Origin: Maribacter aquimaris
GTDB lineage: Bacteria > Bacteroidota > Bacteroidia > Flavobacteriales > Flavobacteriaceae
Direction: 5' to 3'
DNA: 40,000 nt
Assembly: GCF_014596745.1 (NCBI RefSeq)
Contig: NZ_JABTCF010000009.1
Location: forward strand, 99,646 to 139,645
Made by a program: the position numbers and the translations under genes. Under the pieces are notes generated by a model, which saw nothing but the letters and a program-made list of their open reading frames with translations, had not been told where the DNA came from and did not search any database. Positions 10,151-38,583 of the stretch are shown piece after piece; positions within the stretch are counted from its first letter, which is position 1; every line of letters starts with the position of its first letter.

Positions 10151-10166
10151 CATAGTCGTTTTAACA

Positions 10167-10610
10167 CTAAAGATAGAGTCCTTCACGTACCCGGCCCTCA
10201 AAAGGATATTTAATCCCTATTCTTGCCTGAATTCCTTTGGTATAGTAATGATTTATTTCTTTCATTTCAGTAACCAGATCAGCAAATTCAATCAGCTGGT
10301 CAGGAGCGTATCTTCCTGTAATTATTACCTCCAATCCTTCTGGTTTTCCCTTCAATAAATCCATCAGTTCTTCAACACCGAATAATCTGTAGTAGTTAGC
10401 AATATGGGCTTCGTCTAAAACCAAAACATCATATTTTCCGGACAAAATGATTTCAGAAACTTCAATAAACCATCCCTTTAACAAATTGGGCTAAGAAACT
10501 TTCTTGTCCGCACCAACTGCGCGTATGGCAAGCCCCAAGGCAGCCGTTGTTTTTACTTTTCCATTACCTGGATCAGTAGAAAAAAGGCTAAAAGAACCTC
10601 GTTTTTGAAT
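10167..10610 (-). pseudogene. cobO: Decayed cob(I)yrinic acid a,c-diamide adenosyltransferase (CobO/BtuR family)
   Basis: My own translation gives ...STDPGNGKVKTTAALGLAIRAVGADKKVS, TAG at 10491-10493, then PNLLKGWFIEVSEIILSGKYDVLVLDEA...ITGRYAP...LVTEMKEINH. There is no start codon after the upstream stop at 10611-10613. About 40 aa are missing between the P-loop segment and the VLDE box when compared with my recollection of E. coli BtuR. Confidence 0.7.
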
Positions 10611-10674
10611 CTATGGTTTTAGAACAATAATATCCTGGATTACGAAAGAATTTGTTTGCTTTTAATTCCATCGG

Positions 10675-11001
10675 CTAATGTGAAACGGCTTTTAACCCAA
10701 CAATTGAGATAATCAAGGTCGTCAGAAACAACAGCCTTAAAAATGTTGTAGGTTCTTTAAATACAAAAATCCCAACCAATACGGTTCCTACCGCCCCAAT
10801 CCCTGTCCATACCGCATACGCAGTTCCTATTGGTAAAGATTGGGTGGCCTTGATTAAAAGCACCATACTAAAACTTAGGGCTATAAAAAATCCGACATAC
10901 CATAGGTACATTTCATTTCCGGTTGACTCTTTTGCCTTTCCAAGACAGAAAGCGAATGCGACTTCAAAAAGTCCTGCAATTGCCAATAGTATCCAATTCA
11001 T
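10675..11001 (-). CDS. sugE: SMR-family small multidrug/guanidinium exporter (SugE/Gdx type)
   Basis: 108 aa with 4 TM segments; conserved membrane Glu in MNWILLAIAGLFEVAFAF; motifs PIGTAYAVWTGIGAVGT. Confidence 0.85.
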   Translation of the reverse strand: MNWILLAIAGLFEVAFAFCLGKAKESTGNEMYLWYVGFFIALSFSMVLLIKATQSLPIGTAYAVWTGIGAVGTVLVGIFVFKEPTTFLRLLFLTTLIISIVGLKAVSH

Positions 11002-11169
11002 AATTTTGTTCAGGTAGCAGCTAACGTTTTTACATAGGGTTTGTTGCGTATTTCAAACACCAAATTTAGCAATTATAAACGGAATGGAAGTCCACGAAAC
11101 CCAACGCTTCAGGGCTTATAAGAAGGCTTGTGCCAGCAATGGGTTTTAAACGGCCTAAGTCGGGATTGG

Positions 11170-11923
11170 TTATTTATTCCCCTTCCCCGATCCATCTTCC
11201 AATTCCATTTTGATAAGATGTATGATTTGTTCGCCTTCTGATTTAACATTTTCAATATAATCCCTTACTTTATAGGCATATGAAGGTTCAAGATTAACCA
11301 ATTTCCTGAATTCAACGGACGTAAAGGATTCCATCATTTTGACTTTTTCGAACTTTGAAATAAAACTTGGGTTTTTAGTATCAAAGGGACGTAATCCTGA
11401 GGTATGGTTTGAAAAGTTACAAGCGTTTATTTTCACCCTTTCTTTCACCGCATTTAAATATCCATAGTAATTTGCGACAGCGTTTTTTATTGTATCATTT
11501 TCTAATGAGCTGTAAATTCCCAGTATTTACCAGTTCATCATAAGTACTTCTCTTACCAAAATCATATCCACCTGCCCCCCCACCATAGGATACACGATTT
11601 AAGAATTCCAATGTATCGGTCACTATTATTTCATTCTCACAATATTTTTTTGCCAATGTAAGGCCTTCCACTTTTTTGGGTAACCTACTGATAATTATTG
11701 ACTGGTTTAGGTAATTATTATATATCAACTCCTTATCAATACTCTTCAAATACTTTGTTTCCGCTATCCGGTCTAGCCTGCTTTGGTTCCAATTATTGAT
11801 TTGCAATGCAATTAAGATTCCAATAACCACAAGCACAATTTCCCCTATAGCGTATTTCAGATACTTTCCTGTTTTTCCTTCAGAAAGGAAGTGCTGGCGG
11901 ATACCCCTAAAAAATATTATCCT
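11170..11923 (-). pseudogene. Decayed paralogue of the neighbouring FRKIRQ...ALQINNWN membrane-anchored family (I believe Pfam DUF6090)
   Basis: It aligns codon-for-codon with 11987-12739. The start codon position reads AGG (11921-11923; R-I-I-F-F-R-G-I-R-Q versus M-I-K-F-F-R-K-I-R-Q). One extra nt near 11503-11506 splits the gene into the 113-aa and 92-aa track ORFs (...NTGNLQLIRK* / ENDTIKNAVANYYGYLNAVKERVKI...). Total length is 754 nt versus 753 nt for the intact copy. Confidence 0.75.
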
Positions 11924-11986
11924 CTTTTTTACCTTTAATTCCAGCGCTGCAGGCTGGCTCGTTTGTTTAAAATACTACCCAGCTGT

Positions 11987-15024: not shown

Positions 15025-15519
15025 CTATAGATTGAATAGTACGCCTAGGTTGATTGTAGACCAAGTACCACCATCCAAACTAATTCCGGTATAAGAGGCA
15101 TTGATTTCCACACCATCACTAACGGCATAACCTACGGTTGGTCTGTAATAAAAACCACCATCGTTACCATCGTTGATACCTAAGGCATACCCTAAATCGG
15201 TACCGATAGATAATTCTTCGCTAGCTTTGTACCTGGCGACTCCTGCCAATGGCAAAAATTGCACATCTGGGACTTCATAAGTATATTCGCCTTCCCCGAT
15301 TTCCTTACCAAAAGAATTGGTATAACCGGTAGCGACCCCTAAATCGAAATCACCTGCAGTCTCGAACATGTACTGGGCATCCAAACCAATACTAAAGCCT
15401 GAAAGATCACCGGCATCACCAGTGGGCAAACCTAAATTGGCCCCTAGTCTAAAGCCGTCTTGGGCATTCATTGAAAATCCGATTAGCGCAAAGGCCAATA
15501 CTGCTACTACTTTTTTCAT
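15025..15519 (-). CDS. Small outer-membrane beta-barrel protein (paralogue of 13654-14166)
   Basis: Signal peptide MKKVVAVLAFALIGFSMNAQ and conserved blocks shared with 13654-14166. Confidence 0.75.
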   Translation of the reverse strand: MKKVVAVLAFALIGFSMNAQDGFRLGANLGLPTGDAGDLSGFSIGLDAQYMFETAGDFDLGVATGYTNSFGKEIGEGEYTYEVPDVQFLPLAGVARYKASEELSIGTDLGYALGINDGNDGGFYYRPTVGYAVSDGVEINASYTGISLDGGTWSTINLGVLFNL

Positions 15520-15668
15520 AATTGATTGTTTTAAATTGATGGGGCAAACTTAGAATGACTTACATCATTCGACTAATTTTCGTTGTGTAATAATCCAAAT
15601 ATGTTGTGTAATATTGTTTTTTCAGCTTTTTGGAATCGTTTGACGCATATAAATTGAATATTTGTAAA

Positions 15669-16565
15669 ATGAAATGGAAACAAGCTTTAGAAGATTACCA
15701 AGACTATCTTAAGCTAGAACGCGGCCTGTCTGACAACTCCATTAAAAACTACCTTTTGGATGTGGCCAAATTAATTGGCTTTCTTGAAGCCAACACACTC
15801 TCTGTAAGTCCTTTACTTATTGACAAGGAAACCATACAACGGTTTATCTATGAAATCGCGCAAGACGTAAATCCCCGATCACAGGCCCGTATTATTTCGG
15901 GCTTAAAGAGTTTCTTCAACTACTTGACCTTTGAGGATTACCGCACCGACAACCCTATGGATTTGCTTGAATCGCCCAAAATCGGCAGAAAATTGCCCGA
16001 TACCCTTTCTGAGGACGAAATCGATAAGATCATTGGGGCCGTAGACCTTTCCAAACCCGAAGGGGAACGCAACCGCGCCATGCTAGAGACCTTATATGGG
16101 TGTGGACTCCGGGTTTCCGAACTCATAAACCTACGTATATCGGACCTTTTTTTTGAGGAGGATTTTATAAAGGTAACGGGCAAGGGGGACAAACAACGCT
16201 TTGTACCGATCAGTGATTTCAATAAAAAATATATCAATATCTACCGAAATGAGGTTCGGGTGCACCAAAACATACAGAAGGGGTTTGATGATATCCTATT
16301 TTTGAACCGCAGGGGCAAACAACTTACCCGTGCCATGATCTTTACGATCATCAAACAACTCGCTACCAAAATCGAATTGGGCAAAAGTATTAGTCCACAT
16401 ACCTTTCGGCACTCCTTTGCCACCCATTTGTTAAAAAACGGGGCCGACCTTAGGGCCATTCAACAGATGTTGGGCCATGAAAGCATTACCACCACTGAGG
16501 TGTATGTGCACGTCGATCGCTCCCACTTGACCGAGGTCATGGATAAATACCATCCGAGGAAATAG
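15669..16565 (+). CDS. xerD: Tyrosine site-specific recombinase XerD
   Basis: The ATG at 15669 (MKWKQALEDYQDYLKLERGLSDNSIKNY, SAM-like N-domain) is preferred to the track start 15630. Catalytic region HTFRHSFATHLL ... LGHESITTTEVYVHV. Confidence 0.9.
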   Translation: MKWKQALEDYQDYLKLERGLSDNSIKNYLLDVAKLIGFLEANTLSVSPLLIDKETIQRFIYEIAQDVNPRSQARIISGLKSFFNYLTFEDYRTDNPMDLLESPKIGRKLPDTLSEDEIDKIIGAVDLSKPEGERNRAMLETLYGCGLRVSELINLRISDLFFEEDFIKVTGKGDKQRFVPISDFNKKYINIYRNEVRVHQNIQKGFDDILFLNRRGKQLTRAMIFTIIKQLATKIELGKSISPHTFRHSFATHLLKNGADLRAIQQMLGHESITTTEVYVHVDRSHLTEVMDKYHPRK

Positions 16566-17912
16566 TTGGTAGTTGCTGTTCGCTGCTGGCTAATCGCTGT
16601 TCGCTAATGGCTAGTGGCTAATGGCTTTGCGCTTTGCGCTTTGCGCTGCTGGCTGTTCGCTATTCGCTTTGTGCTAATTGCTAATTGTACATTGTTCACT
16701 GCTTACTGTTCACTGTACACTGTTCACTGCTTACTACTATGAACAAAAAACTTTTAACTTATAACTCCCAACTTGGCTGTTCGCTTTTCGCTGCTGGCTA
16801 ATCGCTGTGCGCTATTCGCTATACGCAGACCGCTTATTGCTAATGGTTAATGGCTAATGGCTGTTCGCTTTTCGCTGTTCATTGTTAATTGATCATTGCC
16901 CACTGCCCACTGTTCACTGTTCACTGTTCACTGTTCACTGCTTACTGCTTACTGCTTACTGCTTACTGCTTACTACTATGAACAAAAAACTTTTAACTTA
17001 TAACTCCCGACTTATAACTTCCAACTTGGCTTTTGGCTTTTGTCCCTTGGCTGTTCGCTATTCGCTTTGTGCTAATTGCTAATTGCTAATTGTACATTGT
17101 TCACTGCTTACTGTTCACTGCTTACTGTTCACTGTCCACTGTTCACTGCTTACTGCTTACTGCTTACAGTCCATTGCTTACTGCTTACTACTATGAACAA
17201 AAAACTTTTAACTTATAACTCCCAACTTGGCTGTTCGCTTTTCGCTGCTGGCTAATCGCTATTCGCTATACGCAGACCGCTTATTGCTAATGGTTAATGG
17301 CTGTTCGCTGTTCATTGTTAATTGATCATTGCCCACTGTCCACTGCCCACTGTCCACTGTCCACTGTTCACTGTACACTGCTTACTGCTTACTGCTTACA
17401 GTCCATTGCTTACTGCTTACTGCTATGAACAAAAAACTTTTAACTTACCCCTTATAACTTCCAACTTGGTTTTTGGCTTTTGTCCCTTGGCTGTTCGCTA
17501 ATCGCTTTGCGCTGTTCATTGTTAATTGTTCATTGTCCACTGTTCACTGTTCACTGTTCACTGTCCACTGTCCACTGTCCACTGTTCACTGTACACTGTA
17601 CACTGTTCACTGCTTACTGCTTACTGCTTACTGCTTACTGCTTACTACTATGAACAAAAAACTTTTAACTTACCCCTTATAACTTTAAACTTGGCTGTTA
17701 GCTGTTTGCCATTCGCTGTTCGCCAATTGTTAATTGCTTATTGGTCATTGTTAATTGCTCACTGCCCACTATTTACAGCTCACTGTCCACTGCCCACTCT
17801 TTACTGCTCACTGTCCACTATCCACTGCCCACTGTCCACTGCCCACTGTTCACTGTTCACTGTTCACTGCCCACTGTTCACTGCTTACTGTTCACTGTCC
17901 ACTGTCCACTGT
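16566..17912 (+). repeat. Heptanucleotide-lattice composite satellite, locus 1 (5 anchored units plus 1 degenerate unit)
   Basis: Heptad blocks of GCTNNNN, then AATTG/CATTG, then YYNACTG (TTCACTG, CTTACTG, CCCACTG, TCCACTG), followed by the anchor CTATGAACAAAAAACTTTTAACTTA. Anchor ATGs lie at 16739, 16978, 17193, 17425 and 17650 (spacing 239/215/232/225). I verified by hand one unbroken 7-nt lattice from 16575 to 17421. Confidence 0.95.
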
Positions 17913-18010
17913 TCCCCCATCCTTTTCGCCTAAATCCTTTTTTTTCTGACCAAAGTGTAACATTTTTGTAAAACGGACTACTTATAACGTAACAACCACC
18001 AAACAAAATC

Positions 18011-18505
18011 GTGAATAAAAAACTGGAGCATCAATTTGTGACGGAGCTTGAGAACAATCAGAATATTGTTCATAAGGTCTGCACCCTGTACACCAACGAC
18101 AGGCATTCACACAATGATCTGTTCCAAGAAATAACCATACAGCTTTGGAAGGCGTACCCGAAATTTCGGGGAGAATCAAAATTCAGTACTTGGATGTACC
18201 GGGTTGCGCTGAATACAGCGATTACACTATACCGAAAATCCAAAAGAAGTATACGGACACAGGATTATGACTCGGTCATTTATAAAATCACGGCCAATGA
18301 GTATGATCCCCATGAAGAGGAACAACTGAAACTCATGTATGCCGCTGTAAAGCAATTGGGAGATATAGAAAAAGCGTTGGTCTTCCTGTACCTGGAAGAC
18401 AAGGATTATCGGGAGATTGCGGAAACCCTAGGTATTACCGAGGTGAATGCGAGAGTGAAGATGAACAGGATAAAAAAGAAATTAAGAACCATATTGAATC
18501 CATGA
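18011..18505 (+). CDS. ECF-type RNA polymerase sigma-70 family factor
   Basis: Region 2 DLFQEITIQLWKAYPKF...FSTWMYRVALN; region 4 HTH YREIAETLGITEVNARVKMNRIKKKL; GTG start. Confidence 0.85.
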   Translation: MNKKLEHQFVTELENNQNIVHKVCTLYTNDRHSHNDLFQEITIQLWKAYPKFRGESKFSTWMYRVALNTAITLYRKSKRSIRTQDYDSVIYKITANEYDPHEEEQLKLMYAAVKQLGDIEKALVFLYLEDKDYREIAETLGITEVNARVKMNRIKKKLRTILNP

Positions 18506-18511
18506 CGATAT

Positions 18512-19162
18512 ATGATTGACGAACTCGATTTATTAAAAAAAGATTGGCAGAAAAGAGAAGAACACCTTCCTAAGTTGTCCTTTGATCAAATCCATAATAT
18601 GATCTGGAAGAAATCTTCCTCAATCGTACGATGGATATTGATTATCAGTATTCTGGAGATTACATTGCCTAATTTAATCTACCTATCCCCCTCATTTAGG
18701 GAAAATCCCCTATTGCGCGATGCAGGAGGGTTCAATACGATTTATATTGTATTGAATGTATTTTATTATGCGGTTGTTCTTTATTTTATCTTTCAATTCT
18801 ACCGAAGGTATAAGGAAATTTCAATCTTGGATAGTGCTAAGAATTTAATGCGACAAATAATCAAAACAAGAAAAACAGTTAAACACTATATCATTTTCTG
18901 TCTTACAATGAGTCTTGTTTTTTTCGCATTGTTCATCGTCGGTATCTATCTAAGTGATGACGTTTTATTGGCTTTCGATGGTATCGCTGAAAAAAGCAAG
19001 GAAATTCCTTTGGAAAAAATCAGAACCACGACCATATGGATCCTATCTATTGGAGCGGTTGTCTTTACTGCTTTTATTGCTGGAATCTACTTTCTGCTCT
19101 ACGGCTTATTGTTACGAAAGCTTAAAAGGAATTACAAGGAATTGAAACAATTGGAGGTTTAG
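18512..19162 (+). CDS. Membrane protein of unknown function, possible cognate anti-sigma/partner of the ECF sigma
   Basis: It starts 6 nt after the sigma gene. Cytoplasmic N-terminus, then 4 hydrophobic segments. No recognisable zinc-binding anti-sigma motif. Confidence 0.6.
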   Translation: MIDELDLLKKDWQKREEHLPKLSFDQIHNMIWKKSSSIVRWILIISILEITLPNLIYLSPSFRENPLLRDAGGFNTIYIVLNVFYYAVVLYFIFQFYRRYKEISILDSAKNLMRQIIKTRKTVKHYIIFCLTMSLVFFALFIVGIYLSDDVLLAFDGIAEKSKEIPLEKIRTTTIWILSIGAVVFTAFIAGIYFLLYGLLLRKLKRNYKELKQLEV

Positions 19163-19974
19163 ATTTTCTTACTATTGCGAAATCTACGTAGTTCATTCTC
19201 TTCTTCCAAGGCCAGCAGATCTTTTTGGGAGATTACCTTTAAGAAGGAAGGATGTTGCTCTATGGCATATTCCAGCTTTTCAATGATCGCTTCATAGGAT
19301 TCATTTTCATAATCGATATCCAATGGTTCCTTGATCACCATATTCTGTAGGATACCCTTTTTCTTAACCCGTAGGCCTTTTTTATCAAAGGAACGTCTAA
19401 AACCATCAATAACAACAGGCACAACAATCGGTTTGTATTTTTTAATGATATGGGCCGTACCTTTTCGTATCGGTTTCCAAGGGGTAGTGGTCCCTTGGGG
19501 AAACGTAATGACCCAACCATCGTTCAGTGCCTTTCCGATATTCGAAATATCGCTCATTTTTACCTGTCGTTTTACGTCCTTACCCTCGGCCCTCCACGTA
19601 CGTTCTACACTGATCGATCCGGCATAAGCGAAAATCTTGGTCAACAGACTTTTCTTCATGGTCTCCGCAGCCGCAACATAATACACGTTCAATTTGGGAT
19701 TCCATAGGTAACCTACATTCTTTAGGGAATCATCCCTACCGCTTAAACTAGCATTGAATACATGGAACATGGCAACGACATCGGCGAAATACGTTTGGTG
19801 GTTACTGACAAAAAGTACATTTCTATCCGGAAGGTTTCGTATAATCTCGGAACCCTCAATCTCCAAAGTGTTGAAGCCTTTATAACGTTGGTGGGTGAAT
19901 ACACCCAAAATACGGATTAGCCATCTTTTTAAGAAAAGAATGTGACCAAAAGGATTTTTTTTGAATATACCCAT
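19159..19974 (-). CDS. PlsC-like lysophospholipid acyltransferase
   Basis: Acyltransferase blocks VSNHQTYFAD and ITFPQGTT. The stop overlaps the convergent gene end by 4 nt. Confidence 0.75.
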   Translation of the reverse strand: MGIFKKNPFGHILFLKRWLIRILGVFTHQRYKGFNTLEIEGSEIIRNLPDRNVLFVSNHQTYFADVVAMFHVFNASLSGRDDSLKNVGYLWNPKLNVYYVAAAETMKKSLLTKIFAYAGSISVERTWRAEGKDVKRQVKMSDISNIGKALNDGWVITFPQGTTTPWKPIRKGTAHIIKKYKPIVVPVVIDGFRRSFDKKGLRVKKKGILQNMVIKEPLDIDYENESYEAIIEKLEYAIEQHPSFLKVISQKDLLALEEENELRRFRNSKKI

Positions 19975-19998
19975 AGCTACAAAACTACAAAATAAGCA

Positions 19999-20640
19999 TT
20001 ATAAAACTTGCTTCAAAAGCTCCTTGATTTCGTTCAGCATCATGGCCGTTGCCCCCCAAACCGTGTAACCATTTAATTTAAAGGCGGGTACATCCATGTT
20101 TTTCGCATAAGATGTCGATAATTTTTGGATAAATACCTTGGAGTCATCCATGAAATCAATCAAAGGTACCTCTACCAATGCTTCAACTTCGGACTCTTGC
20201 ATGATAAAGGGACAGGGATTCGCCATGAGTCCCATAAACGGCTTTACCTCAAAATTACTGGGCGGAATATAGATTTCACTCAATGATTTAATAATCGATA
20301 CCTTTTCGGGAGGCACGCCTACTTCCTCATATGTTTCCCGCAATGCGGTATGCAAAATATCAGCATCCTCTTTTTCGGACTTCCCCCCGGGGAACCCTAT
20401 TTGGTTCGAATGTACCCCCTCATAGGTCTTACGAAGGATCAACAGTAAATGGGTAAGGCTTCGCTGATCGGGGTAGAACAAGGCCAAAACAGCGGCTTTT
20501 TTCGCATTTTGTTTTTTAATCTCACCGGCTTCCAACTCCTTTAATCGAATTGAAGGGGCCATTTTATAGTGGGAAGCACTACCTGGTAAGGGCAGATTTT
20601 TTATTTTTGAACTACGTAAGGCAAAATCATCAAAATTCAT
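19999..20640 (-). CDS. Nudix hydrolase, CoA pyrophosphatase type
   Basis: Nudix box GFPGGKSEKEDADILHTALRETYEEVG. The ATG at 20640 (MNFDDF...) is preferred to the TTG at 20649. Confidence 0.8.
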   Translation of the reverse strand: MNFDDFALRSSKIKNLPLPGSASHYKMAPSIRLKELEAGEIKKQNAKKAAVLALFYPDQRSLTHLLLILRKTYEGVHSNQIGFPGGKSEKEDADILHTALRETYEEVGVPPEKVSIIKSLSEIYIPPSNFEVKPFMGLMANPCPFIMQESEVEALVEVPLIDFMDDSKVFIQKLSTSYAKNMDVPAFKLNGYTVWGATAMMLNEIKELLKQVL

Positions 20641-21343
20641 GATATCCAAAAAATTCTATTCCACTACAATATTACTACTTATATTTTTGGTTGCCTGTAA
20701 GGAAGAACCTAAACCTACCACTGAAAAAGTAACAATTGTAACACAGGATTCCGTAGCACCAAAAGAAGAAATAAAAAAAGAGGAAGAACCTTTTAAACTG
20801 ACCGATGAAAACGCTATTGATTTCTTCTTTAATTACAATAAGACCCTAAAAGATGACAAGGTAAGGATCACGACCACCTTGGGCAGTTTCACGGTTCAGT
20901 TGTATGATAATGTCCCTTATCACAAAGCGAACTTCATCTACTTGACCAAAAAAGGTTATTTCAACAATACCCAGTTTCACCGTGTGGTGAAGAATTTCAT
21001 TATTCAGGGTGGTAATTCCGACGATAAGGCCACGGCCCAAAAGCGTAATGCTATAGGTAGATATCTACTACCGCCTGATGCGAAAAAAGGATATAAACAC
21101 CATCGAGGTACCATTTCCATGCCCAGTAGTGAAGTGGATAACCCGCATATGTTGGCCTCTCCCTATGAATTCTTCATTGTGGTCACCAAACCGGGATCTT
21201 ACCATTTGGATGGGGAATACACGCCATTCGGGAAAGTAATACAAGGTATGGATGTCGTTGACAAAATCAATGCGCAACGTGTCGGAAAGGGCGATTGGCC
21301 GTATCAAAACATTTACATTACCAAGGCGGAGGTGGTGAAGTGA
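20639..21343 (+). CDS. Cyclophilin-type peptidyl-prolyl cis-trans isomerase, lipoprotein
   Basis: Lipobox LVAC; cyclophilin core FHRVVKNFIIQGG ... GTISMP ... FFIV ... PFGKVIQGMDVVDKI. Confidence 0.9.
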   Translation: MISKKFYSTTILLLIFLVACKEEPKPTTEKVTIVTQDSVAPKEEIKKEEEPFKLTDENAIDFFFNYNKTLKDDKVRITTTLGSFTVQLYDNVPYHKANFIYLTKKGYFNNTQFHRVVKNFIIQGGNSDDKATAQKRNAIGRYLLPPDAKKGYKHHRGTISMPSSEVDNPHMLASPYEFFIVVTKPGSYHLDGEYTPFGKVIQGMDVVDKINAQRVGKGDWPYQNIYITKAEVVK

Positions 21344-21346
21344 ATA

Positions 21347-22211
21347 ATTGGCTTTTCGCTTAGCGCTGTTCGCTGTTCGCTAAACGCTTTGTGCTAATTG
21401 CTAATTGTACATTGTCCACTGTTCACTGTTCACTGCTTACTGTTCACTGCTTACTGCTTACTGTTCACTGCTTACTGTTCACTGCTTACTGTTCACTGCT
21501 TACTGCTTACTGCTTACTGCTTACTGCTTACTGCTATGAACAAAAAACTTTTAACTTATAACTCCCGACTTATAACTTCCAACTTAACTTTTCGCTTAGC
21601 GCTTGACGCAGACCGCTAATCGCTTTTCGCTAATGGCTAATGGCTGATGGCTACTGGCTACTGGTTACTGGTTACTGGCTACTGGCTACTGGCTTTCCGC
21701 TAATCGCTAAACGCTTTGTGCTAATTGCTAATTGTCCACTGTTCACTGTTCACTGCTTACTGTTCACTGCTTACTGCTTACTGCTTACTGCTTACTACTA
21801 TGAACAAAAAACTTTTAACTTATAACTCCCGACTTATAACTCCCCACTTGGCTTTTGAAATTTGGAATTTGCTAATGGCTACTGGCTACTGGCTACTGGT
21901 TACTGGTACTGGCTACTGGCTACTGGTTACTGGCTACTGGCTGTTCGCTAAACGCTTTGTGCTAATTGCTAATTGTCCACTGTTCACTGCTTACTGTTCA
22001 CTGCTTACTGTTCACTGCTTACTGCTTACTGCTTACTGCTTACTGCTTACTGCTTACTGCTATGAACAAAAAACTTTTAACTTATAACTCCCGACTTATA
22101 ACTTCCAACTTAGCTTTTCGCTACTGGCTACTGGCTATTGGCTTTCCGCTAATCGCTATTCGCTTTGCGCTAATTGCTAATTGCTAATTGCTAATTGCTA
22201 ATTGCTAATTG
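21347..22211 (+). repeat. Heptanucleotide-lattice composite satellite, locus 2 (3 anchored units plus a terminal GCTAATT block)
   Basis: Anchor ATGs at 21536, 21800 and 22062 (spacing 264/262). Locus-specific GG(C/T)TACT heptads (for example 21635-21690 and 21876-21940). Six perfect CTTACTG at 22018-22059 and six perfect GCTAATT at 22169-22210. Confidence 0.95.
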
Positions 22212-22236
22212 AAATTTAGAATTCACCTTTCCCTTA

Positions 22237-22848
22237 CTACTTCTTCACCTTATAAATATTAGGCAAGGCGATATGAAACTTTACAGCCAATAAACGGAAT
22301 ACAATAACTATCATAATAGCAACGATATAGGAATACGCGGAATCGATTGGGGTCATAGCCAATAAAAAATACGATACCCCTCCCAAAATACAGGCTGTAG
22401 CATAGATTTCCTTTTGGAATATTACTGGAATCTCATTACAGAGGATATCCCGAATCACCCCTCCAAAGGAAGCCGTTATGGTTCCAAGGATAATACATAT
22501 GGGCGGTGCCAATTCGGCTTCAAGTCCCTTTTCTATACCTACCATGGTGAACAATCCTATACCGATGGTATCGAATAAAAAAAGCGTTTTCCTTAAAAAT
22601 TTCAATTGGTTTACGAACAATATCGCCAATATGACCGCCCCCAATATCGTAAAGAGATAGATGGGATTCAGCATCCAGAATACAGGCTTATTCCCAATAA
22701 GCACATCACGCAGTGTTCCTCCCCCAGTAGCCGTCACAAAGGCAATGATAAGCACCCCGAACAAATCGAGTTTCTTTTCCATGGCCACCAAAACCCCAGA
22801 AATTGCGAAAGCTGCCGCACCTAAAATATCAATAATCAAATAAAGCAT
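22237..22848 (-). CDS. TRIC-family (UPF0126/YadS-like) cation channel
   Basis: 203 aa with 7 TM segments and an internal duplication carrying GGGTLRDVL and FGGVIRDIL. Confidence 0.8.
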   Translation of the reverse strand: MLYLIIDILGAAAFAISGVLVAMEKKLDLFGVLIIAFVTATGGGTLRDVLIGNKPVFWMLNPIYLFTILGAVILAILFVNQLKFLRKTLFLFDTIGIGLFTMVGIEKGLEAELAPPICIILGTITASFGGVIRDILCNEIPVIFQKEIYATACILGGVSYFLLAMTPIDSAYSYIVAIMIVIVFRLLAVKFHIALPNIYKVKK

Positions 22849-22969
22849 CGAAAAATAATTTGGAGCGCAAAAGTATGTAATTGCACTGAACTATTTTCAA
22901 AAATTTTTAGGTAAAAAAATCACCTAAGTATTTAAAGGACAAAGGAATAATGGAATGCTTTTTTGGAGG

Positions 22970-23686
22970 CTAAAGTTGCTGGGTATAATAACTGTAATCC
23001 TTAATTATGGAGTCCACAAAATCGAGAGGTTTTTCCGCTGTTGTAATCTGGGTCACTTTCTTGATCTGATTGCTCAAGGATAGAATGACTTGGTGATTTC
23101 CATTCCTTCTCGCCTGATCGTACAATTCCTTGATTGTCTGCATTTCCCTATCCTCAAAAATCGTAACCTGGGGATACTTGGGTGCATAATCCTCAGGAAA
23201 TTCCCGTAAGAGGGTGTCTTGCAATCCTACCCGTTTCTTTTCACTAATGACCGTTGTCCCTGCCGCAATATCCCCGACACGTTGACCGTTGCCACGAATC
23301 AAAATCGTTAAGACGGCCAACCCCCCAGAGGTTAAGACAACATCAATAACACGAAGGATCCACCGAATGAAATAACTGGAAAAGCCCGGTTTGGAGCCAT
23401 CCAATTTCACTACCCGTATTTTCATCAACCCCTTACCAATGGTTTTACCATCCATAAAGGTTTCAAATAAAAGATAATATAAAAACGCCGGTAAACCCAT
23501 GAGCATATATAGGGCCCACATATCCTCCATATCAATGTCCATGCTTATGAGCATAATAATCATCAATATCGTATAGGCCATGATCACAAAACTATCGATC
23601 AGGTAGGCCAACATGCGGTCTCCCAAGTTGGCCGTATTTTGACTTATACTTATATTTTGGGCAGTTTCTATTTGAAATTGTTCCAT
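22970..23686 (-). CDS. RDD-family membrane protein
   Basis: LGDRMLAYLIDSFVI ... FIRWILRVIDV pattern with 3 TM segments and a soluble C-terminal tail. Divergent from the SpoIIM-like gene with a 33-nt gap. Confidence 0.75.
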   Translation of the reverse strand: MEQFQIETAQNISISQNTANLGDRMLAYLIDSFVIMAYTILMIIMLISMDIDMEDMWALYMLMGLPAFLYYLLFETFMDGKTIGKGLMKIRVVKLDGSKPGFSSYFIRWILRVIDVVLTSGGLAVLTILIRGNGQRVGDIAAGTTVISEKKRVGLQDTLLREFPEDYAPKYPQVTIFEDREMQTIKELYDQARRNGNHQVILSLSNQIKKVTQITTAEKPLDFVDSIIKDYSYYTQQL

Positions 23687-32431: not shown

Positions 32432-33292
32432 TTTGGAAATATGATTACTGAATATTACGTTTTGCCGAATAGGTTAAAGTTTGATTTTAATGACTAAGAT
32501 CAAAGGGTTTGATTCTTCATCAAAACTATCCTCTTTTACAATCAAAATCACATAGTATCTTATTGAAAACCTATATATTTTTGATGATTTCTGATAAGAT
32601 TATCCAAATTTCGGAATTTCAGGTTAATATGCCATTAGCAAAATCATAAGTTTTATCGATTCAATATTTACTTTAAATCACAGGAATTAATCAATGAAAT
32701 AAAAAGTATGGTCAAACCTGGGTCAATCCCAAAATAGGCCGTTCCTTTTTTAGGACCCCGTTCAGGGGTGTGAAAAATATAGCATTCTTCCTTTATGGAT
32801 TAACCACAATTTTTGCATAAACACAACAATTGATCCTGATCCTCAAACCTTACCCCCGGTCCTGGCCATAATTTTGAAATATTATCGGTAACGATCTTAA
32901 GAAAATGGGAGATATTCCCTTGGGCTGGAACAAATGGACTATAATTACTAGGTAGACTTCCCCTGATTGGGTACAAATCACCTTCAGCACTACAAAAAGT
33001 AGGAACAGGAACTGAATTTTGGAATAAAATAGGGGATTGGGGACATTTACTCTTGGGCGATAGTGTTTACCAGACCTTTTTGACCGGCAAATTTGACAGG
33101 GATAAACCTTTAATCAATCGTTGAAAAGTACTTTTCGAGAAAAAACCCTTCCCTTTTGACACCCGATTTTTTCAACGGATTATGTCTTAGAAAGTCCCCC
33201 AAAAACAGGTTATAACAAAAATCTTTCCTTTATCCGCACTGAAAACTGAACACTGAATGTAATCTTCTTTTGGCTATCATACATAAATACAC

Positions 33293-33430
33293 TCAGTATC
33301 CAGCATTCGTCAACAACCTATCAACTACTAAAAATCTTATACGCAGTATCTTTATTTTCCACTAACCGATACAACGCATAACAAATAACAAATATGTCTA
33401 AATTCCCAAGTTCAGGAACGTGGAAATTTG
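33293..33430 (-). repeat. Copy B of the ~140-nt paralogous intergenic element
   Basis: See copy A. It lies immediately downstream (on the minus strand) of the small gene 33439-33672. Confidence 0.7.
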
Positions 33431-33438
33431 TAAGGACC

Positions 33439-33672
33439 TTATTTTGATTTAGACCTAAACCGCAAAGATTTTATATCCTTTATCATAGTGATGCCCAATA
33501 ATAAAAAGGAGCATCCAAACACCGATTTTCCAATCGTACAAAACGCACATTCAAAATAATTCAATGAACATCCCATATAATGACTGACACAACCAACGAT
33601 AATCATAATGAGGTAATCAACCATTACGAAAACCGATAATAAGAACAACGATTTTATAGCTATATCTTTCAT
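33439..33672 (-). CDS. Small Cys-rich two-TM hypothetical protein
   Basis: 77-aa ORF with two hydrophobic segments and a Cys cluster in the central third (CVSHYMGCSLNYFECAFCTIGKSVFGC). No homology recognised. Confidence 0.4.
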   Translation of the reverse strand: MKDIAIKSLFLLSVFVMVDYLIMIIVGCVSHYMGCSLNYFECAFCTIGKSVFGCSFLLLGITMIKDIKSLRFRSKSK

Positions 33673-33854
33673 GTCCGTACTATTTAAAATCTTGGATTAC
33701 TTCTTTATTTAAAGGTAAATAGCAAGTACAGCTTCACAAAGTACTTTAGATAACCATTTCTTTGCCTTACTAATGGTATTTTTAACATTCTATGATGTAA
33801 TTTTACATTTTATGCCTTGAAACACAAAAAGATAGAACAAACATTCCAGATATA

Positions 33855-37585: not shown

Positions 37586-38583
37586 TTATCGCTATTCGCT
37601 TGGCGCAAATCGCTATTCGCACATCGCTTACCGCCAATTGCTCATTACTAACTGTACATTGTTAATTGTTCATTGTTCACTGCTTACTGTTCACTGCCTA
37701 CTGTTCACTGCCTACTGCCTACTGCTTACTGCTTACTGCTTACTGCTTACTGCTATGAACAAAAAACCTTTTAACTTATAACTTCTCACTCATAACTTCC
37801 AACTTGGCTATTCGCTGCTCGCTAATCGCAGACCGCTTATCGCTATTCGCTTGGCGCAAATCGCTATTCGCACATCGCTTACCGCCAATATCTCATTACT
37901 AACTGTACATTGTTAATTGTTCACTGCTTACTGTTCACTGCCTACTGTTCACTGCTTACTGTTCACTGCCTACTGCTATGAACAAAAAACCTTTTAACTT
38001 ATAACTTCCAACTTTGCTATTCGCTGATGGCTGCTCGCAGACCGCTTATCGCTATTCGCTTGGCGCAAATCGCTATTCGCACATCGCTAACCGCCAATTG
38101 CTCATTACTAACTGTACATTGTTAATTGTTAATTGTTCACTGCTTACTGCTTACTGTTCACTGCTTACTGTTCACTGCTTACTGTTCACTGCCTACTGTT
38201 CACTGCCTACTGTTCACTGCCTACTGTTCACTGCCTACTGCCTACTGCTTACTGCTTACTGCTTACTGCTATGAACAAAAAACCTTTTAACTTATAACTT
38301 CTCACTTATAACTTCCAACTTGGCTATTCGCTGCTCGCTAATCGCAGACCGCTTATCGCTATTCGCTTGGCGCAAATCGCTATTCGCACATCGCTTACCG
38401 CCAATTGCTCATTATTACTAACTGTACATTGTTAAATGTTCTCTGCTTACTGATTACTGCTTACTGCTTACTGTTCACTGCTTACTGTTCACTGCTTACT
38501 GTTCACTGCTTACTGTTCACTGCTTACTGTTCACTGCTTACTGTTCACTGCCTACTGTTCACTGCCTACTGTCCACTGTTCAC
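37586..38583 (+). repeat. Heptanucleotide-lattice composite satellite, locus 3 (3 anchored units plus 1 terminal unit)
   Basis: Anchor ATGs at 37755, 37978 and 38271 (spacing 223/293). It carries the locus-specific CCTACTG heptad, the anchor variant AAAAAACC and a near-identical ~95-nt GCAGACCGCTTATCGCTATTCGCTTGGCGCAAATCGCTATTCGCACATCGCT...TGTACATTGTTAATTGTT block. Confidence 0.95.

Follow-up and report, generated by a model that had tools for sequence, protein, structure and literature searches.

Nested heptanucleotide arrays in intergenic spacers of a Maribacter genome

The stretch of DNA analysed here (the window) comprises 40,000 nucleotides of the Maribacter aquimaris contig NZ_JABTCF010000009.1. 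Between a xerD tyrosine recombinase gene and a gene for an ECF-type sigma factor it carries a tandem repeat of about 1.35 kb that is built on heptanucleotides (locus 1). A preliminary description of this DNA, made from the letters alone, treated the repeat as a single locus. That view does not hold, as two further arrays of the same family lie on the same strand of the window, which makes three within 22 kb. Locus 2 sits in the convergent spacer between a cyclophilin-type PPIase gene on the plus strand and a glycine-transporter-family gene on the minus strand, flanked by their two stop codons. Locus 3 lies between an OsmC gene and a sugar-phosphate isomerase gene, both on the plus strand. The distance from the upstream stop codon to the array is 10 nt at locus 1, 8 nt at locus 2 and ~100 nt at locus 3, and from the end of the array to the next start codon it is ~100 nt at locus 1 and ~130 nt at locus 3. 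XerD matches its 298-aa counterpart in Maribacter sp. ANRC-HE7 at 100% identity, and the start of the gene was inferred from that length. The isomerase likewise matches ANRC-HE7 at 100% identity, and both proteins are 99% identical to those of M. polysiphoniae. Coordinates are collected in Table 1, and contigs from relatives are cited by handles (L001, L003 and so on).

Table 1. The xerD/sigma array with its units and flanks, and the two sister arrays (positions within the window)
Feature	Coordinates	Strand	Basis
xerD tyrosine recombinase gene, upstream flank, outside the repeat	15669..16565	+	Pfam Phage_integrase and SAM-like domains
u0, leading partial unit, type A junction	16575..16736	+	heptad print-out, motif phases
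u1, 239 nt, type B	16737..16975	+	heptads, anchors, motif phases
u2, 215 nt, type A	16976..17190	+	Tandem Repeats Finder, heptads, motif phases
u3, 232 nt, type B, dimer partner of u1	17191..17422	+	unit similarity
u4, 225 nt, B-type junction, chimeric anchor	17423..17647	+	heptads, relatives' sequences
u5, terminal unit, chimeric anchor	17648..17912	+	24-mer sharing, relatives' sequences
Conserved non-repeat region (…TCCTTTTTTTTCTGACCAAAGTGTAACATTTTTGTAAAACGGACTACTTATAACGTAACAACC…), fixed 3' boundary of the array	17913..18010	+	cross-species comparison
ECF-type sigma factor gene, downstream flank	18011..18505	+	Pfam Sigma70_r2 and Sigma70_r4_2
Locus 2 array, three anchors, extra GGCTACT heptad blocks	21351..22212 (approx.)	+	repeat scan, Pfam flanks
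Locus 3 array, three anchors each with an extra C (CTATGAACAAAAAACCTTTTAAC; AAAAAACCTTTTAAC)	37590..38583 (approx.)	+	repeat scan, Pfam flanks

The seven-nucleotide period of locus 1 is strong. Across 16566-17912 self-identity at lag 7 is 0.707, against 0.278±0.012 in 500 shuffles of the same sequence, and lags 14, 21 and 28 give 0.65, 0.61 and 0.60, with the remaining short lags at ~0.2-0.26. Tandem Repeats Finder tiles the region with arrays of period 7, 14, 21 and 28, and period 7 is found throughout 16575-17914. The preliminary description had claimed a 7-nt lattice and named autocorrelation against shuffled sequence as its check; both methods bear the lattice out. On a fixed lattice from 16575, 191 consecutive heptads can be read, which extends the run of 121 (16575-17421) followed earlier, and a heptad matches the next one at 4.95 of seven positions on average, compared with 1.94 in shuffles. 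The first 23 heptads begin with G and 18 of them read GCTNNNN, as had been reported. Even the first anchor falls on the lattice (ACTATGA, ACAAAAA, ACTTTTA, ACTTATA, ACTCCCA, ACTTGGC). When lag-7 identity is taken over sliding 200-nt segments with a threshold of 0.45, a single segment outside the three arrays exceeds it (~36701, identity 0.46).

Five anchors (CTATGAACAAAAAAC…) occur in locus 1, each at the first position of one of the units u1 to u5, confirming the claimed anchors and the unit size of 215-240 nt. The leading partial unit u0 passes from GCTNNNN/CGC-type heptads through ATTG to YYNACTG heptads. In u1 a short anchor (CTATGAACAAAAAACTTTTAACTTATAACTCCCAACTTGG) is followed by a CGC block containing CGCAGACCGCTTATTGCTAATGG, an ATTG block and an ACTG block that ends in five CTTACTG heptads. 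In u2 a long anchor with a 14-nt internal duplication precedes three GCTAATT heptads and the ATTG/ACTG heptads. The anchor of u4 joins a 5' half of the locus 2 type (CTATGAACAAAAAAC) to a 3' part (TTACCCCTTATAACTT) that resembles locus 1 of relatives, and the anchor of u5 is chimeric in the same way (TTACCCCTTATAACTT…-type 3' part). The last unit had been described as degenerate. It is indeed the most diverged one, with the boundaries given in Table 1.

A second level of order connects alternate units. The similarity of u1 to u3 is 0.77 and that of u2 to u4 is 0.61, whereas the neighbours u1 and u2 (0.43) and u2 and u3 (0.50) are less alike. Likewise, identity at lag 447/454 (0.55) exceeds that at lag 225/232 (0.49). 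Units two periods apart are thus more alike than adjacent ones, which is the mark of a higher-order repeat, in this instance over four units only. The junction types of u0 to u5 run A B A B B A, so that the proposed A/B dimer of ~450 nt stands for the first four units and breaks down afterwards.

The lattice had also been called unbroken, which is correct on a local scale only. In 21-nt sliding windows along locus 1, lag 7 is unbeaten by any lag from 4 to 10, and block phase is perfect inside each unit. The unit lengths leave remainders of 1, 5, 1 and 1 when divided by seven; as they are not multiples of seven, the same anchor and ACTG block shift register between successive units. At the junctions of blocks and anchors, the identity of neighbouring heptads drops to 2-3 of seven, which is the chance level. 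The junctions from CGC to ATTG heptads are of two kinds, with offsets of -2 and +1. These are 3 nt apart because (ACTGCTT)n holds both ACT and GCT at that distance. Locus 1 is therefore locally continuous and is not one coherent global register.

The three window arrays follow a common grammar, in which CGC/GCT-type heptads lead to ATTG heptads, YYNACTG heptads and an anchor. Within the ACTG block of each array, C/TCCACTG gives way to TTCACTG and then to a closing CTTACTG run. The opening block is of the CGC type in all three, and at loci 1 and 3 a final ACTG block is followed by a C-run. Locus 3 furthermore carries alternating TTCACTG, CTTACTG and CCTACTG heptads. A pooled logo of 236 ATTG/ACTG heptads reads Y-Y-N-A-Y-T-G, in which A4, T6 and G7 are almost invariant, and positions 1-3 and 5 vary to give more than ten amplified variants. 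Units of locus 3 have a similarity of 0.68-0.86 to one another and of ~0.3-0.5 to units of the other loci. Higher similarity within than between loci, together with a diverged edge unit, is a classic sign of unequal exchange and concerted evolution.

The arrays are asymmetric in composition. The plus strand of locus 1 is 65% pyrimidine with a C/G ratio of 1.70, which agrees with the strand polarity and pyrimidine richness claimed for it. Across the arrays, the strand co-transcribed with the upstream gene has a C/G ratio of 1.5-2.06 and is ~63-65% pyrimidine. The near-absence of inverted repeats was also confirmed: locus 1 contains nothing beyond weak, 74%-complementary low-complexity pairs and has no terminal inverted repeats. 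The window arrays are C-rich on the C-rich strand, which is probably the lagging one. We considered whether replication direction sets the polarity. Background GC skew is ~-0.056 in all compared Maribacter loci and the arrays of M. polysaccharolyticus and M. arenosus are nonetheless inverted, so that replication direction does not dictate it.

Protein coding, CRISPR, repetitive extragenic palindromes (REP), miniature inverted-repeat transposable elements (MITE) and insertion sequences (IS) had been set aside at the outset, and checks of open reading frames (ORFs), Pfam, Rfam and inverted repeats agree. ORFs remain open in the array because YYNACTG heptads are free of stop codons on the plus strand (12-16 stops per frame, versus 36-43 on the minus strand), and their matches are exclusively heptad-derived hypothetical proteins from metagenomes. 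A CRISPR array does not fit, as the stretches between anchors are themselves repeats of varying length and the ten flanking proteins contain no Cas domain in Pfam. Inverted repeats limited to the 74%-complementary pairs and fold z-scores of ~0 to +0.9 argue against MITE, IS and REP elements. No structured non-coding RNA family was recognised either: Rfam gave no match at gathering scores in the whole window and none at E≤1 in 16400-18100, no tRNA was detected, and the RNA fold of a full unit is no more stable than that of shuffled sequences on either strand (z = +0.88 and 0.02).

Transcription signals were also sought. The Bacteroidetes-type promoter box TAnnTTTG does not occur inside any of the three arrays. 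In 15500-23000, matches to sigma-70-like promoters and to terminators are at or below the number expected from shuffles, and no intrinsic terminator serving xerD or the PPIase gene was found. The region that separates locus 1 from the sigma gene is probably the promoter and leader of that gene, judging by its conservation. Its sequence is nearly unchanged in three relatives (L004, L005 and L020), and the core TGTAACA…ACTACT…AACAAC is kept in M. luteus (L008 12625-12700), in the contig carrying the XerD of Maribacter sp. HTCC2170 (L189 13290-13350) and in Zobellia (L190 14900-14960). Wherever there is an array, this motif bounds it on the downstream side.

The start of the anchor (ATGAACAAAAAACTTTTAACT) encodes a mini-ORF, MNKKLLT. 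A small gene can be dismissed since the end of the mini-ORF varies, the extra C shifts the frame at locus 3, and the anchors of relatives lack the ATG. The 74%-complementary pairs had suggested that the anchor is a relic of inverted heptads, which is not supported, as alignment scores do not exceed those of shuffled anchors (z ~1.5). Its first 22 nt (CTATGAACAAAAAACTTTTAAC) coincide with a gene start in the Bacteroidetes metagenome-assembled genome JAEXBS010000047.1 (L003 7692-7713), where they open a signal peptide (MNKKLLTAAAFALIG…). The anchor might descend from the 5' end of a captured gene, or the match might reflect a common Bacteroidetes N-terminus.

Array length at the xerD/sigma site differs between assemblies that have the same flanks and a XerD 99% identical to that of the window. 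Between conserved flanks, locus 1 of the window measures 1435 nt. Two M. polysiphoniae assemblies have 958 nt (L001, strain DSM 23514) and 773 nt (L005) at this locus, and two metagenome contigs (L004, L006) have 324 nt. In L004 the array begins 1 nt past the xerD stop codon. A Logan contig ends within the array, 217 nt after xerD. In L020, whose XerD is 93% identical, the array is 260 nt long and contains one anchor. In more distant species, the conserved sigma promoter region is immediately preceded by a simple (TGGCTAT)n array (M. luteus) or by heptad remnants only (M. polysaccharolyticus), and M. arenosus lacks an array at this site.

The array fills the spacer between xerD and the sigma gene in the window, as had been stated, and its adjacency to xerD is incidental, given that a peptidase M20 gene intervenes in two of the species. 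This intervening gene is present in M. luteus (L008 11072-12511), M. polysaccharolyticus (L022 11047-12486) and the HTCC2170-like contig (L189 11790-13229). It is missing from that place in the window (16566-18010), M. polysiphoniae, L020 and M. arenosus, and this gene-sized indel adjoins the array site.

The other two spacers also hold arrays in relatives. At locus 2, M. polysiphoniae has a rearranged version with the same edges, M. luteus has (TTGGCTY)n and a few ACTG heptads, and M. arenosus has a degenerate inverted array. The locus 2 array of M. polysaccharolyticus (635 nt) keeps the order CGC, ATTG, ACTG in an inverted and anchor-less form. Both M. luteus arrays have more G than C on the co-transcribed strand (skew +0.22 at locus 1 and +0.03 at locus 2). 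Locus 3 is ~1 kb long and carries anchors in the window, versus 376-404 nt of anchor-less array between the same flanks in M. polysiphoniae and a metagenome strain, where units of ~70-85 nt share a true single register. The HTCC2170-like contig and Zobellia galactanivorans keep the gene order and contain no heptad array over 21 kb. Their spacer between the PPIase and glycine-transporter genes is only 10-13 nt long.

Two observations concern the edges of the relatives' locus 2 arrays. At the PPIase end there is a short run of CAAT-type heptads, which are ATTG heptads read on the opposite strand (L001 2040-2100, L004 14613-14660, L020 14607-14655 and L022 16014-16055). This run precedes the forward array and has been lost from the window, and the arrangement suggests small local inversions within arrays. 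Downstream of the inverted array of M. polysaccharolyticus, L022 16650-16930 holds a second, different tandem repeat (…CCTTGAACTTGATCCTTGAACTTGA…) that is out of 7-nt register and seems to have a period of ~8 or 16.

Words shared between loci indicate mosaic ancestry. Units u1 to u3 of locus 1 have 24-mers in common with the window's own locus 2 anchors. The 24-mers common to L005, L001 and L004 cluster in u5 and the 3' flank, with isolated words only further upstream. We take u5 for the oldest part because it has the most sequence in common with the M. polysiphoniae array at the same site. A scan of GTDB representative genomes (one per species) for the anchor core gave one true locus and two chance matches; the ATG-type core occurs within an array at one place only, locus 2 of M. 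polysiphoniae DSM 23514. The simplest reading of these patterns is that, in the ANRC-HE7 lineage, arrays already present at loci 1 and 3 received anchor-bearing units from locus 2.

A scan of Joint Genome Institute (JGI) metagenomes with the anchor pattern gave nine matches, none of them inside an array, and a plasmid search gave nothing relevant. Its sole match to the dimer unit is in the Yersinia pseudotuberculosis record NZ_AP028969.1 (189523-189650, 72.5% over 131 nt). That sequence recurs at seven places in the record without an annotated feature and is probably an unrelated low-complexity or heptad-like repeat. Heptad arrays themselves are common in other DNA, with no more than a modest preference for the ACTG core. 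Viral contigs contain more than 120 ACTG-core stretches at six units and 38 stretches of (ACTGNNN)x12, compared with 21 of the control (AGTCNNN)x12, the two sets overlapping in part. With so weak an enrichment, we do not rely on the core as a special signature across phyla. Separate ACTG-core heptad arrays lie on both strands of the IMG/VR contigs L085, L044, L054, L063, L077 and L087, with up to 12 matches in 9 kb. Their dominant units are ACTGATT, ACTGATC and ACTGATA, and median GC is ~58% across 80 retrieved viral loci.

Several known classes of repeat resemble the Maribacter arrays. The short tandemly repeated heptanucleotides (STRR) of heterocystous cyanobacteria, reportedly described by Mazel et al. 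in 1990, include the units CCCCAGT (STRR1), TTGGTCA and CAACAGT (STRR3). They too are non-coding 7-nt tandem repeats at many loci, with strand asymmetry, strain-to-strain variation and an unknown function. Tandem heptanucleotides at three window loci, all intergenic, agree with this definition, and the STRR analogy drawn in the preliminary description is a fair one as to repeat type. Read on the opposite strand, STRR1 and STRR3 become ACTGGGG and ACTGTTG and belong to the NNNACTG class. A search of both window strands found no tandem pair of any of these three STRR heptamers, and the host phylum differs (the flanking proteins are 99-100% identical to those of Maribacter, Flavobacteriaceae). 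We know of no anchor or higher-order unit in STRR arrays.

Two further comparisons are instructive. Bacterial variable-number tandem repeat typing loci are intergenic and differ in copy number between close strains, as here; typically they have one unit size and are specific to a locus, unlike the multi-locus family with nested periodicities in the window. Eukaryotic satellite DNA with higher-order repeats, such as alpha satellite, serves as an analogy only. It shares with the window arrays monomers, higher-order units, homogenised interiors, diverged edges, concerted evolution and exchange between arrays. Its monomer is ~171 nt and its arrays span megabases, compared with 7 nt and ~1 kb in a bacterium where nothing points to a centromere or chromatin function.

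The closest precedent is found in the same family of bacteria. MacGregor (2015, PMC4679880) reported TAACTGA repeats in intergenic regions of Gramella forsetii, Aequorivita sublithincola and Elizabethkingia anophelis, which hold "other heptamer direct repeats" or "larger assemblages of heptamer repeats". Both those assemblages and the window arrays are long intergenic mixes of related 7-nt units in marine Flavobacteriaceae, of unknown function, and in both cases relatives with the same gene neighbourhood have shorter, repeat-free spacers. Contigs often end in the heptamer regions, so that the arrays break assemblies (PMC4679880). The arrays are thus less novel than had been implied at first. 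Read cyclically, TAACTGA is ATA-ACTG and falls into the NNNACTG class with CTTACTG and TTCACTG, and a tandem pair of TAACTGA is absent from both strands of the window. In Beggiatoaceae two to six TAACTGA copies lie directly upstream of start codons (PMC4679880), a placement not seen for the window arrays. The passages of PMC4679880 on these repeats describe no anchor, fixed block order, dimer repeat or exchange between loci. The anchor with its multi-block grammar, the higher-order repeat and the homogenisation between loci were found neither in those passages nor in full-text searches, and look new.

Heptanucleotides are the commonest class of long simple sequence repeats (LSSRs) in most prokaryotic genomes, and polymerase slippage has been proposed as the cause of LSSRs (Mrazek 2007, as cited in PMC4679880). 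LSSRs are tandem arrays of 5-11-nt units far beyond chance length with a scattered phylogeny (PMC4679880). Locus 1, a head-to-tail array of a short unit (1-11 nt) that exceeds chance length, belongs with them on both counts. Unlike an LSSR of one simple unit, the window has at least three heptad families (CGC, ATTG, ACTG) and an anchor in fixed order, and the composite unit of ~225 nt is itself tandem and common to several loci.

On balance, we consider it fairly likely that the arrays constitute a lineage-specific, non-coding heptanucleotide satellite of the LSSR/STRR kind, which grows by slippage and exchange and has no sequence-specific function. The xerD/sigma array itself is probably dispensable, fast-evolving filler DNA. 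Slipped-strand mispairing would gain or lose steps of 7 or 14 nt, which could account for the five consecutive CTTACTG heptads and for the alternation of TTCACTG and CTTACTG. Unequal exchange between composite units of ~215-240 nt and between dimers of ~450 nt would then generate the higher-order repeat, homogenising the interior while the edges of the array retain older, diverged units. Unit variants may spread from array to array by ectopic recombination or gene conversion, seeded by shared heptads, and in this manner the ATG-type anchor could have passed from the PPIase locus to the xerD/sigma and OsmC loci of the window genome. The arrays appear to occupy unconstrained spacers, either between convergent genes or from a stop codon to the next promoter. 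Neighbouring genes would be affected, if at all, through the changed length of the spacer. The array structure, the multi-locus family, the length differences between assemblies, the mosaic ancestry and the lack of arrays in the outgroups are observed; the molecular processes and the dispensability are inferred from them.

Some of the evidence weighs against a neutral satellite. A4, T6 and G7 are near-invariant among heptads whose positions 1-3 and 5 vary, and the same three cores and block order recur in the inverted, anchor-less array of M. polysaccharolyticus. Neither the invariant core nor the block order is obviously predicted by neutral drift, and selection for a binding motif could be at work. 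The same two spacers hold heptad arrays in at least five species-level lineages, which could reflect retention rather than the behaviour of a hot spot. Furthermore, each window array points in the same direction as the gene that directly precedes it (n = 3, not significant). Copy number was compared between draft and metagenome assemblies, and part of the differences could stem from assembly collapse.

These invariant positions, the recurrence of cores and block order in a distant inverted array and the occupation of the same spacers in several Maribacter species are also what speaks for a possible, though unlikely, alternative. The arrays would be functional binding platforms whose A-Y-T-G heptads bind a protein to DNA or single-stranded RNA, acting as a sponge, nucleoid anchor or regulator of the adjacent genes. 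The predicted transcript is unstructured, as such a role might have it, and S1-, Csp- or CsrA-like proteins have been proposed as partners of TAACTGA repeats (PMC4679880). On the other side, no candidate binding protein was identified, the array has anything from ~2 to 6 units in assemblies whose XerD proteins are 99% identical, and its orientation flips between species. The HTCC2170-like contig and Zobellia manage without arrays despite having the same genes, and viral ACTG-core arrays are only modestly commoner than their control.

A more specific form of this idea holds that the heptads are selected, register-specific sites with A-Y-T-G every 7 nt and that the grammar of CGC, ATTG, ACTG and anchor is a functional module. 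We regard it as distinctly doubtful. Were it correct, Maribacter would possess a bacterial counterpart of a functional higher-order satellite, a protein sponge or platform tuned by copy number. The same logic might then explain the NNNACTG-type arrays of cyanobacteria (STRR), Beggiatoaceae and Flavobacteriaceae (TAACTGA).

It is improbable that the arrays serve as Rho-loading, termination or insulator regions, whose untranslated, unstructured RNA with more C than G would stop read-through into the sigma gene or the convergent neighbour. The idea draws on the start of the arrays so close behind the xerD and PPIase stop codons (8-10 nt, and 1 nt in L004), on the lack of intrinsic terminators for these genes in 15500-23000, and on a C- and pyrimidine-rich transcript that folds no better than shuffled sequence. 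Four points speak against it: the M. luteus arrays at the same sites are richer in G than in C, the PPIase gene and the array next to it have opposite orientations in M. polysaccharolyticus and M. arenosus, the outgroups manage with PPIase spacers of 10-13 nt, and 1.35 kb far exceeds the need of a rut site.

Even less is to be said for the anchor-bearing unit as a non-autonomous mobile element, amplified after its insertion at new sites, which we judge very improbable. The unit is present at three window loci, versus one M. polysiphoniae DSM 23514 locus with the ATG-type core, and the arrays start and stop at corresponding points. Locus 1 lacks terminal inverted repeats, however, no target-site duplications are recognisable at the ends of the three window arrays, and xerD, a housekeeping gene, is the sole recombinase gene next to the arrays. 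Metagenomes scanned with the anchor pattern yielded no family members. Relatives hold anchor-less arrays or arrays with different anchors at all three sites, and spread into pre-existing arrays fits homologous conversion better than transposition.

That short-read misassembly created the array or its length is hardly credible: the source assemblies are draft or metagenome, a Logan contig breaks off in the array and similar assembly difficulty is reported for Elizabethkingia (PMC4679880), yet arrays with the same flanks occupy the xerD/sigma site in at least five independent assemblies, and the units of a single array are sufficiently distinct from each other for unique placement. That the array exists is secure; only its exact copy numbers are uncertain.

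To our knowledge, satellite DNA as understood in eukaryotes is usually said to be lacking from bacterial genomes. The marine flavobacterium studied here has arrays of kilobase size, whose nested periods are 7, 14, ~225 and ~450 nt. If long reads confirm them, the satellite arrays would offer a compact, tractable system in which to follow the birth and homogenisation of higher-order repeats. They would also provide practical markers for strain typing and represent a known hazard for short-read assembly of Maribacter. The invariant A-TG core gives a handle on whether heptanucleotide arrays such as STRR and TAACTGA have a binding partner. As the arrays look dispensable on present evidence, their interest is evolutionary and mechanistic rather than physiological.

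Two other parts of the window were noted. A divergent intergenic region of 1.4 kb (32432-33854) has no ORF longer than 77 aa, no heptad array and no Rfam match. Two genes of the metagenome contig L004, encoding a 220-aa protein and a 363-aa protein resembling a 3-keto-disaccharide hydrolase, have no tblastn match anywhere in the window. They occupy the relative's equivalent (L004 3946-5823) of a 1.8-kb stretch (10151-11986) in which the window carries only short minus-strand ORFs of 92-113 aa.

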